From a virus (lineage: Duplodnaviria; Heunggongvirae; Uroviricota; Caudoviricetes): a DNA stretch of 9,648 bases. Of this stretch, positions 7,126 to 8,183 are shown in pieces. The notes beneath the pieces were generated by a model. That model saw nothing but the letters and a program-made list of their open reading frames with translations. It was not told where the DNA came from and ran no database searches. The translations under genes and the position numbers were made by a program. Numbering within the stretch: the stretch's first letter is position 1; the number at the start of each line of letters is the position of its first letter. The stretch lies in the IMG/VR virus record IMGVR_UViG_2609459830_000010. One strand, given 5' to 3'.

Positions 7126-8183
7126 CAGAGCGTGAACTGTCCATTATCCGTGCGCTGGGTGAAGAATTCTCCACGGTGCTGGCGGATTTACAGCGCACAT
7201 TTGAGGGGAAGATGGCCTCGCAGGCACAAGCGTTTGAAGAGAAACTGACTTCCCTGTCGGCGGTATTACAGAAGCATGTGACGGTGGATGAGGTGCGTCC
7301 GGTTCTGCAGGCGATGGTGGATGACGCTGTGGGGGCCATTTCGGTACCGCGTGATGGTCGTGATTATGATCCGGATGTACTGCAGCAGGCGGTGAATGAT
7401 GCGGTTGCGAATATTCCGGTACCGGCGGACGGCAAAAGTCTCACCCCGGATGATGTGCGTCCGATGCTTGAGCAGATGGTGGCGGAGGCAGTGGGCCATA
7501 TTCCAGCTCCCCGCGATGGTCGTGATTACGATCCGGAAGTACTGAAGCAGGCGGTGAATGATGCGGTCGGGAGAATTCCGGTACCGGCGGACGGCAAAAG
7601 TATCACCCCCGATGATGTGCGTCCGATGCTTGAGCAGATGGTGAAAGAGGCTGTAAGCCATATTCCCGTTCCGCGTGATGGTCGTGACTACGATCCCGAT
7701 GTTCTGCGGAAGGCGGTTCTGGAGGCGGTGAATGCCCTGCCGGCTCCGCAGGACGGGCGTGATGCCACGGCACTGGAAGTGCTCCCCGCCATTGACGATC
7801 AAAAATCCTTTCCCCGGGGCACGTATGCCACACACCTTGGAGGACTCTGGCGGGCGTATGAAAAAACGCACGGGATGCGGGGATGGGAATGCCTGGTTGA
7901 CGGGGTGGCGGATATTGACGTCAGTATGACGGGTGAGCGGTTGTTCTCTGTGGTGATCCGGCAGAGCAGTGGCCAGTGTACGGAAAAAACATTTTCCCTG
8001 CCGGTGATGCTCTACCGCGGAGTGTTCAGAGCCGGTGAAACCTACCACCCCGGCGATACGGTGACGTGGGGGGGCTCGCTGTGGCACTGCAACAGTATGA
8101 CCGCCGATAAACCGGGGGATGCGCATGCATCTGGCTGGACGCTGGCTGCCAAACGGGGACGGGATGCTGGAGGCGGAAAATGA
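7122..8183 (+). CDS. Repeat-containing head-module protein of unknown function: helical N-terminus, three tandem 54-aa repeats, C-terminal carbohydrate-binding-like module
   Basis: ATG 7122 overlaps the portal stop (ATGA); its stop overlaps the next start (ATGA at 8180-8183). Three in-frame 54-codon repeats begin at about residues 58, 112 and 166. The C-terminal region contains Y-HPGDTVTWGGSLWHCNSMTAD...SGW, resembling the CBM5/12 pattern Y..G..VTYNG..Y.C...H.S..GW. Confidence 0.75.
   Translation: MTERELSIIRALGEEFSTVLADLQRTFEGKMASQAQAFEEKLTSLSAVLQKHVTVDEVRPVLQAMVDDAVGAISVPRDGRDYDPDVLQQAVNDAVANIPVPADGKSLTPDDVRPMLEQMVAEAVGHIPAPRDGRDYDPEVLKQAVNDAVGRIPVPADGKSITPDDVRPMLEQMVKEAVSHIPVPRDGRDYDPDVLRKAVLEAVNALPAPQDGRDATALEVLPAIDDQKSFPRGTYATHLGGLWRAYEKTHGMRGWECLVDGVADIDVSMTGERLFSVVIRQSSGQCTEKTFSLPVMLYRGVFRAGETYHPGDTVTWGGSLWHCNSMTADKPGDAHASGWTLAAKRGRDAGGGK
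7287..7775 (+). repeat. Three tandem, in-frame 162-bp coding repeats, each internally made of two related 27-codon half-units
   Basis: Units start near 7293, 7455 and 7617 (each begins with GTG coding Val of VRPxLEQMV). Units 2 and 3 share the identical 33-nt stretch gatgatgtgcgtccgatgcttgagcagatggtg; units 1 and 2 share attccggtaccggcggacggcaaaagt. The remainder is highly similar with synonymous and conservative changes. Confidence 0.85.

Follow-up and report, generated by a model that had tools for sequence, protein, structure and literature searches.

The fibritin of phage T4 (wac) is an accessory protein; its gene lies beside the neck genes, and the protein has an N-terminal attachment region, a helical stalk with loops and a small C-terminal β domain. 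Other described systems concern the portal vertex of the capsid. C-terminal additions to portal proteins are tolerated, as seen with the P22 barrel and with fusions of T4 gp20 to green fluorescent protein (GFP). Minor head proteins encoded after the portal gene, including SPP1 gp7 and Mu gpF, are occasionally fused to the portal. The tuning of fibrous phage proteins in length by in-frame tandem repeats is also a known phenomenon. The DNA analysed here is the IMG/VR virus record IMGVR_UViG_2609459830_000010 (Caudoviricetes), a stretch of 9,648 nucleotides (nt) that is referred to as the window. It contains a gene, termed gene X, which lies between the portal gene and the gene of the head-tail adaptor Ad1 and encodes a protein with a tandem repeat array. 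X is very probably a portal-coupled, low-copy protein with a spacer whose length can be tuned by recombination.

Comparison of X with these systems showed partial likeness in each case. X may be regarded as analogous to T4 fibritin in its location near the neck genes, N-terminal attachment region, segmented stalk, C-terminal β domain and accessory nature; whereas no sequence or family match was found between them, the predicted helices of X comprise 13-17 residues with proline-rich loops of 11-12 residues, and fibritin is not fused to a portal. In the fused alleles described below (G6), the helix of X would continue the portal C-terminus as a helical extension into the capsid, as in the P22 portal barrel and the C-terminal GFP fusions of T4 gp20. 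Unlike the P22 barrel, X is normally encoded by a separate gene and has a repeat stalk and a β domain, and no homology between the two was found. SPP1 gp7 and Mu gpF (PF04233) share with X the position directly downstream of the portal, the expected low copy number and the occasional portal fusions; however, X has no match to Phage_Mu_F or a related family, and its architecture is entirely different. X also differs from CBM5/12 chitin-binding modules and from phage fibre proteins with collagen repeats or ChiC_BD domains, since its Pfam score is sub-threshold, no Gly-X-Y run is present in the X protein of the window, and its conservation resembles that of core head proteins; glycan binding by X is putative. 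By the sequence-level tests that were run, fibritin, the P22 barrel, SPP1 gp7/Mu gpF and the collagen/CBM fibres all appear non-homologous to X.

The X family and its predicted structure

X matched phrog_1289 over its full length (E=6.3e-180; residues 1-353 on profile positions 1-331), and distant representatives of the family matched this profile too. Its match to phrog_2271 (859 positions) covered positions 630-859 only, which form the non-portal C-terminal part of the profile; positions 1-451 correspond to the portal. Both profiles are labelled "portal protein", and the same name is given to X in GenBank/RefSeq. This name was rejected, because the Phage_portal domain (PF04860) sits in the upstream open reading frame (ORF) at 5761-7125. 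The Pfam and NCBIfam searches with X returned no Phage_portal domain, no Pfam family and no NCBIfam model. A scan of 1.84 billion representatives revealed 5,567 clusters (50% identity) that match X at E<=0.001. The X family is very large, and "portal protein", the only name it has, is incorrect. When X was searched against the sequences of the PDB, only chance-level matches were obtained (E 0.28-0.43). Precomputed Pfam matches on the fused proteins (TetR_C_35, DUF4244 and FliG_N) were weak, came from the helical repeats and were disregarded. The existence of a widespread portal-coupled family that is uncharacterised and misnamed is a new observation.

A single-sequence AlphaFold model of X was uninformative (predicted local distance difference test score, pLDDT, 41) and was replaced by a model built with a multiple sequence alignment of 87 sequences, which reached a mean pLDDT of 78. 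In this model the N-terminal region is predicted to form one long α-helix (Table 1); its sequence diverges fast between loci. The repeat region is modelled as six short helices (residues 55-72, 84-96, 109-125, 138-150, 163-179 and 192-204) with 11-12-residue loops between them. The earlier note on this DNA, which was made from the sequence alone, had proposed helix-like segments and loops for the repeats; the model agrees with this at low confidence, and it shows a series of helices and loops rather than a compact globular fold.

The C-terminal β domain was modelled at pLDDT ~98 over residues ~225-345. Its match to CBM_5_12 (PF02839) is sub-threshold, at 18.9 bits against a gathering value of 26.2 bits (E=0.0015), and relatives scored 13-25 bits; the modelled three-dimensional fold of its modules corresponds to that of CBM5/12. 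The structural matches of the domain include the tandem CBMs of chitin deacetylase, chitin-binding domains, the receptor-binding complex of phage Milano, and the tail fibres of Agrobacterium phage 7-7-1 (E=4e-4). The domain also matches many uncultured-phage proteins annotated as collagen repeat, CBM5/12 or ChiC_BD. The X C-terminal domain had a median identity to the window of 54% in 56 loci, compared with medians of 50% (portal) and 46% (major capsid protein, MCP). Conservation at the level of core head proteins suggests that this domain has as its partner either a conserved component of the phage or a ligand that many hosts share, rather than a host-specific receptor.

Translational coupling of portal, X and adaptor

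The last codons of the portal gene (AGG GGG ATA CTG CGA AAA TGA) hold both the Shine-Dalgarno (SD)-like ribosome-binding site and the start codon of X, which overlaps the portal stop codon in an ATGA (Table 1). A second ATGA is found at the other end of the gene, where the Ad1 start codon (8180-8182) overlaps the X stop codon (8181-8183) and a GGAGG lies upstream. Through these two start/stop overlaps, portal, X and Ad1 form one translationally coupled chain. The placement of the repeat gene between a portal and a connector, as proposed in the earlier note, is borne out by the PF04860 portal upstream and the gp6-like adaptor downstream.

The arrangement was compared in 80 loci encoding relatives of the X C-terminal domain, with one genome per species, from alpha-, beta- and gamma-proteobacteria and one Clostridia metagenome-assembled genome. 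The order TerL-protease/MCP-portal-X-Ad1 was kept throughout. The X start overlaps the portal end in 70 of the 75 loci that have both genes; an overlap of -4 occurs in 25 loci, -8 in 14, -1 in 12, -14 in 7 and -16 in 5, with other values in the rest. SD-like sequences (AGAGGA or AAGGAG) are found upstream of X in the relatives at the same spacing. Of 150 family representatives, 148 are stand-alone proteins whose first residue is the equivalent Met (MxxRE[LI]...). The frequent overlaps and the stand-alone proteins indicate that two separate, coupled genes are the ancestral and general arrangement.

Portal and adaptor form 12-subunit rings. Coupling of X between these two proteins suggests that it is made in similarly small amounts, about 12 copies per virion; coupling to the low-abundance portal also argues against a capsid-wide decoration present at hundreds of copies. 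X occupies a fixed place, between portal and adaptor, in an HK97-type module that is very common among prophages of proteobacteria; the long-tailed Stx1/Stx2c phages of enterohaemorrhagic E. coli are among those that carry it.

The repeat array and its length variation

Tandem Repeats Finder detected a period-162 array at 7353-7717 within gene X (2.3 copies, 87% matches, no indels, score 562). A repeat search resolved three copies at 7286-7771 with an exact spacing of 162 nt and 100, 82 and 67% identity to the first copy. The units span residues 56-217 of X, and each unit of 162 nt equals 54 codons, so the reading frame is preserved. Three copies of 162 nt without gaps, at 67-82% identity, lie well outside what chance would yield. 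The three in-frame repeats reported earlier at 7287-7775 were thus confirmed, with coordinates correct within 3 nt. Their description as near-identical was overstated for the window, where the pairwise identities are 82, 72 and 67% at the nucleotide level and 74, 69 and 59% at the amino acid (aa) level; yet 13 of 55 multi-unit alleles from other loci do contain two neighbouring units that are >=98% identical.

The basic period of the array is 27 aa, and each 54-aa unit consists of two related modules of a helix and a proline loop. The consensus is D.VRPMLEQMV.EAV..IP.PRDGRDY for the A module and DP.VL..AV.DAV..IP.PADGKS.TP for the B module. The B module of unit 3 has diverged and runs into the C-terminal domain. 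The repeat region is strongly acidic (isoelectric point 4.35, net charge -14); the C-terminal domain is neutral. The ratio of nonsynonymous to synonymous substitution rates (dN/dS) between the window's own units is 0.40-0.51, which indicates that their peptide pattern is moderately constrained.

The X ORF was measured in 79 loci from IMG/VR and annotated records, and the unit counts were taken from 58 whole-unit alleles. Among close E. coli relatives, ORFs of 245, 299, 353, 407, 461, 515 and 569 aa correspond to 1, 2, 3, 4, 5, 6 and 7 units, respectively, and the commonest allele has four units. A form of 379 aa differs by one 27-aa module. The spans of matches in complete genomes and phage records imply 1, 2, 3 and 4 units. 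Alleles with different unit numbers (e.g. 353/407/299 aa) occur within 3 of 48 haplotypes with identical flanks; this, together with the nearly identical adjacent units in some alleles, indicates recent gain or loss of whole units. The array therefore behaves as an in-frame variable-number tandem repeat, with a unit length that is a multiple of three and a copy number that is polymorphic among close relatives. Copy-number variation without loss of frame had been predicted in the earlier note and was found here, and invariant copy number among homologues was not observed. Family-wide, the 150 representatives at 50% identity span 214-1237 aa and contain 0-17 IPxPxxG motifs; the whole family ranges from 0 to ~20 modules, in steps of 162 nt and occasionally 81 nt. 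Truncated X alleles of 90-148 aa also exist. It is plausible that short-read assemblies collapse these repeats.

The length changes might result from unequal homologous recombination or replication slippage between the 162-nt units. The frame would be retained since each unit equals 54 codons, and the helix-loop pattern might be kept by moderate purifying selection (dN/dS ~0.4-0.5).

An antisense ORF on the minus strand (7266-8198, 310 aa) spans the repeats and is the codon-aligned complement of X. It is open in relatives over a median of 84% of the X length and has no PHROG or family match. This ORF was treated as a by-product and not as a gene, because its stop codons need the rare X sense codons TTA, CTA and TCA.

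The G-run junction and portal-X fusions

The SD-like sequence of X includes a run of five G residues (G5; 7106-7110, in CAGGGGGAT). Among 110 junction loci, 68 have G5 and 42 have six (G6), and the context is otherwise identical. The G5 state, as in the window, gives two ORFs; the G6 state gives a single portal-X ORF of ~860 aa. The full-length portal frame is open upstream of X in both classes, and most alleles are intact. The fusion proteins in the databases read ...AMFRGDT(E/A)KMTERELS..., and their source is the genomic G6 allele. Phage 2851 carries G6 with an annotated portal coding sequence of 859 aa, and G6 is also found in further isolated or induced phages (YYZ-2008, Stx2a_WGPS6 and vB_EcoS_phi330). 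About 43 of 60 sampled complete genomes have G6, but this proportion is inflated, as the G6 form served as the query.

The tract resembles a homopolymer contingency locus in that its length is polymorphic and alters the reading frame. Contingency tracts are typically longer than the 5-6 nt found here. The G state is largely in line with the flank haplotype, with at least six changes over 55 haplotypes and two mixed haplotypes. A fast phase-variation switch was judged unlikely on this ground, and the G5/G6 change appears from the alleles compared to be an occasional homopolymer indel.

An independent in-frame portal-X fusion of ~1,240 aa was found in Pantoea (Candidatus Pantoea communis, L134, locus 3719-7462; protein P0239, 1237 aa). 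The Pantoea fusion contains an acidic low-complexity linker, a coiled-coil stretch and ~19 modules (helix plus LP.PEPLPDI), followed by the conserved C-terminal domain.

One G6 fusion, in E. coli O157:H7 JEONG-1266 (L193, locus 1181-3765), has a further frameshift close to where X ends on its 3' side. Its fused frame ends at 3680 instead of ~3765, and hence it is flagged "frameshifted".

The Prokaryotic Genome Annotation Pipeline (PGAP) calls portal and X one "phage portal protein, frameshifted" pseudogene in all four inspected G5 loci (L001-L004, RefSeq E. coli). That the normal split form of X is annotated as a pseudogene is a further new observation. The split portal/X call may contribute to the scoring of O157 portals as defective in the literature; a study of the Sakai strain scores the portal as defective in Sp6, Sp9 and Sp12 and as intact in Sp10, which are prophages with this head organisation (PMC2669165). 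Because the split form is the normal arrangement, calls of defective prophages that rest on a split portal need revisiting. The natural fused and unfused portal forms and the length series of 1-7 units are also new, and these alleles permit direct tests of X function and location.

Location and proposed role of X

The N-terminal helix of X is proposed to be an anchor beside the portal. The repeat array might then be an elongated acidic spacer or tether whose length is not critical, and it would set the distance from the fast-evolving anchor helix to the conserved C-terminal domain. The C-terminus of HK97-type portals faces the capsid interior; with its N-terminus at the portal C-terminal crown, X would project into the head. 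An interior location is favoured because fusions to the portal C-terminus are frequent, recurrent and apparently tolerated. Phage 2851, which carries such a fusion, is reported to be viable on K-12. The placement of X inside the head, with its N-terminus docked at this crown, has a little less than an even chance of being correct, and a compromise judgement that covers both the portal-coupled, low-copy nature of X and its interior location is evenly balanced. A more specific proposal is speculative and rather improbable. In this proposal X would be an interior portal-anchored tether or core along the capsid axis, or a tail-released cargo that grips peptidoglycan via its chitin-binding-like domain; its reach would be given by the number of 27/54-aa modules, and the G5/G6 run would act as a natural switch by which X is attached to the portal either non-covalently or covalently.

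Several points weigh against an interior, portal-docked X. The G6 alleles keep the SD sequence and the ATG, so free X may still be produced by internal initiation and the fused form may be a harmless extra copy inside the head; this weakens the location argument drawn from the fusions. The confidence of the repeat-region model is low (pLDDT 44-68). The likeness of the C-terminal domain to carbohydrate-binding modules and to tail-fibre or collagen-repeat proteins is typical of external fibres, and the short Gly-X-Y collagen tails at the end of some family members (P0139, P0150) are a trait of the same kind. Literature searches found neither a publication describing the X family nor an experiment that puts X in the virion.

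The fibre-like traits would suit a fibre outside the head, at the neck or collar, comparable to the whiskers that fibritin forms in T4. The helix would be attached outside at the portal or adaptor, the stalk would probably be trimeric, and the CBM5/12-like domain would bind a glycan for adsorption or retention. The X gene between portal and adaptor, coupled to both, and the segmented helix-loop design with a small C-terminal β domain are consistent with such a fibre, and so are the best structural matches (the 7-7-1 tail fibres, the Milano receptor-binding complex, and the chitin-binding and collagen-repeat/CBM5/12/ChiC_BD proteins), the collagen tails and the free variation in length that is typical of fibres. 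However, fusion to the portal C-terminus is common, also in isolated phage, and for an external role free X would then have to come from internal initiation. Across hosts ranging from Brucella to E. coli, conservation of the C-terminal domain matches that of portal and MCP, which is not typical of a receptor binder specific to its host, and no sequence similarity to fibritin or any fibre family was found. An external fibre is therefore considered unlikely, though by no means negligible.

The earlier note had read the protein as a surface-exposed fibre or decoration. A decoration or head fibre spread over the capsid, bound to the major capsid protein at many sites, is very unlikely. X is encoded in the head module, its architecture is fibre-like with a CBM-like domain, and the MCP, itself conserved, could be the binding partner of the conserved C-terminal domain. 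The start codon of X, however, lies inside the portal gene end in almost every locus, so that its synthesis is tied to that of a 12-copy protein. Moreover, the X gene follows the portal gene and does not adjoin the MCP gene, and recurrent in-frame fusions fix X at the portal vertex. The surface-exposed reading was thus not established: the C-terminal domain does resemble CBM5/12 and fibres, but the portal coupling (~70/75), the portal fusions and the core-like conservation point to a low-copy component of the portal vertex and not to a capsid-wide decoration.

Recoding and neutral drift as alternatives

Portal and X might also be one gene, in which programmed -1 frameshifting or G-run slippage would extend a fixed fraction of portals, with G5 as the recoding site. 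T7 gp10A/10B and lambda gpG/gpGT are comparable in that two products are made and the C-terminal extension lies in the -1 frame; the portal/X pair differs from them in its genomic G5 and G6 alleles, the own start codon of X, and the absence of a heptamer or stimulatory structure. X does lie in the -1 frame relative to the portal, and if tRNA-Gly slipped on G_GGG (7107-7110), ahead of the rare codon AUA, the product would match the G6-type protein (RGDTAKMTERE...) exactly; PGAP also handles the pair as a single frameshifted gene. However, the junction TTC AGG GGG ATA CTG CGA AAA TGA contains no X_XXY_YYZ heptamer, and no downstream stimulatory RNA structure was predicted (minimum free energy -34.3 kcal/mol versus -33.25 +/- 3.3 for shuffles, z = -0.32). 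Gene X possesses an ATG and an SD sequence of its own, and the 70 of 75 distant loci with overlaps show ordinary, varied start/stop arrangements that lack a G-run. The 148 of 150 representatives stand alone from that Met, and the database fusions stem from the genomic G6 allele and not from recoding. Because the overlaps are ordinary and neither a heptamer nor a structure is present, programmed frameshifting at CGA AAA TGA or G_GGG was rejected as the main mechanism, and this explanation is highly improbable.

Low-level slippage of tRNA-Gly on the G-run may occur, and slippage could possibly give both portal isoforms from one allele. On the G6 allele, a -1 slip would lead to a stop two codons later (GGA TAC TGA) and give a portal of normal length.

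That X is a dispensable or decaying passenger, with repeat variation as neutral drift in defective prophages, is scarcely credible: most occurrences are in prophages, many O157 prophages are defective (PMC2669165), and truncated alleles and the second frameshift in L193 exist, but the 5,567 clusters, the synteny and coupling strictly conserved across three proteobacterial classes, C-terminal domain conservation equal to that of core head proteins, dN/dS <1 even between repeat units, and the majority of intact alleles in both the G5 and G6 classes all speak against it.

Genomic context and other features of the window

The window represents the late region of a lambdoid, Stx-type prophage of E. 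coli, with the gene order TerS-TerL-protease/MCP-portal-X-adaptor. The coordinates of the features are listed in Table 1.

Table 1. Features of the 9,648-nt window, with subdivisions of gene X and its start region
Feature	Coordinates	Strand	Description
Rz-like spanin fragment	1-297		ORF cut by the window edge
TerS	1327-1890		
TerL	1887-3548		
Prohead protease-major capsid fusion	3612-5549		645 aa
Portal	5761..7125	+	454 aa; PF04860, E=2.5e-79; phrog_2271 positions 1-451
SD-like sequence of X (AGGGGG)	7105..7110	+	11 nt upstream of the X ATG; includes the G5 run 7106-7110
ATGA overlap	7122..7125	+	X ATG 7122-7124 on portal stop 7123-7125; X in -1 frame relative to portal
Gene X	7122..8183	+	353 aa; phrog_1289 member; uncharacterised head-module protein
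X N-terminal region	7122..7286	+	aa 1-55; one long α-helix predicted at aa 3-50, pLDDT 83-95 (AlphaFold with alignment)
Repeat unit 1	7287..7448	+	aa 56-109; A module and B module
Repeat unit 2	7449..7610	+	aa 110-163; 82% nt identity to unit 1
Repeat unit 3	7611..7772	+	aa 164-217; 67% and 72% nt identity to units 1 and 2
X C-terminal β domain	7773..8180	+	aa 218-353; predicted CBM5/12-like hairpin modules (GGLWRA...; YHPGDTVTWGGSLWHC)
Head-tail adaptor Ad1 (gp6-like)	8180..8506	+	PF05135, phrog_40
Head closure Hc1	8516-8866		

The nearest relatives are 94-96% identical and comprise Stx1a-, Stx2c- and Stx2a-converting phages and E. coli chromosomes. Matches to the window were found in 1,247 of 5,426 complete E. 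coli genomes, at a median of 4 places per genome, and the module is present in ~1,050-1,250 of these genomes.

The ORF at 3612-5549 encodes a Peptidase_S78 prohead protease (aa 48-152) and an HK97-type capsid domain (aa 386-635) in a single protein. The location of the portal gene after the capsid gene is an unusual order for HK97-like modules. A 73-aa ORF (5594-5815) overlaps the portal start and matches phrog_829 (unknown function, E=2e-39); its RefSeq relatives are annotated as hypothetical protein. The truncated ORF at 1-297 carries an odd pair of annotations: Rz-like spanin in PHROG (E=6e-41) and the C-terminal domain of TonB in Pfam (PF03544, E=4e-15). Two ORFs in the interval from lysis to terminase genes, 448-744 (98 aa) and 741-1211 (156 aa), overlap each other, and neither has a Pfam or PHROG match. 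Close to the 3' end of TerS, positions 1770-1823 hold an in-frame tandem duplication of 27 nt (2.0 copies, 85% matches; AAAAGGCGATGCCGCGAAAAAAGCGGC).

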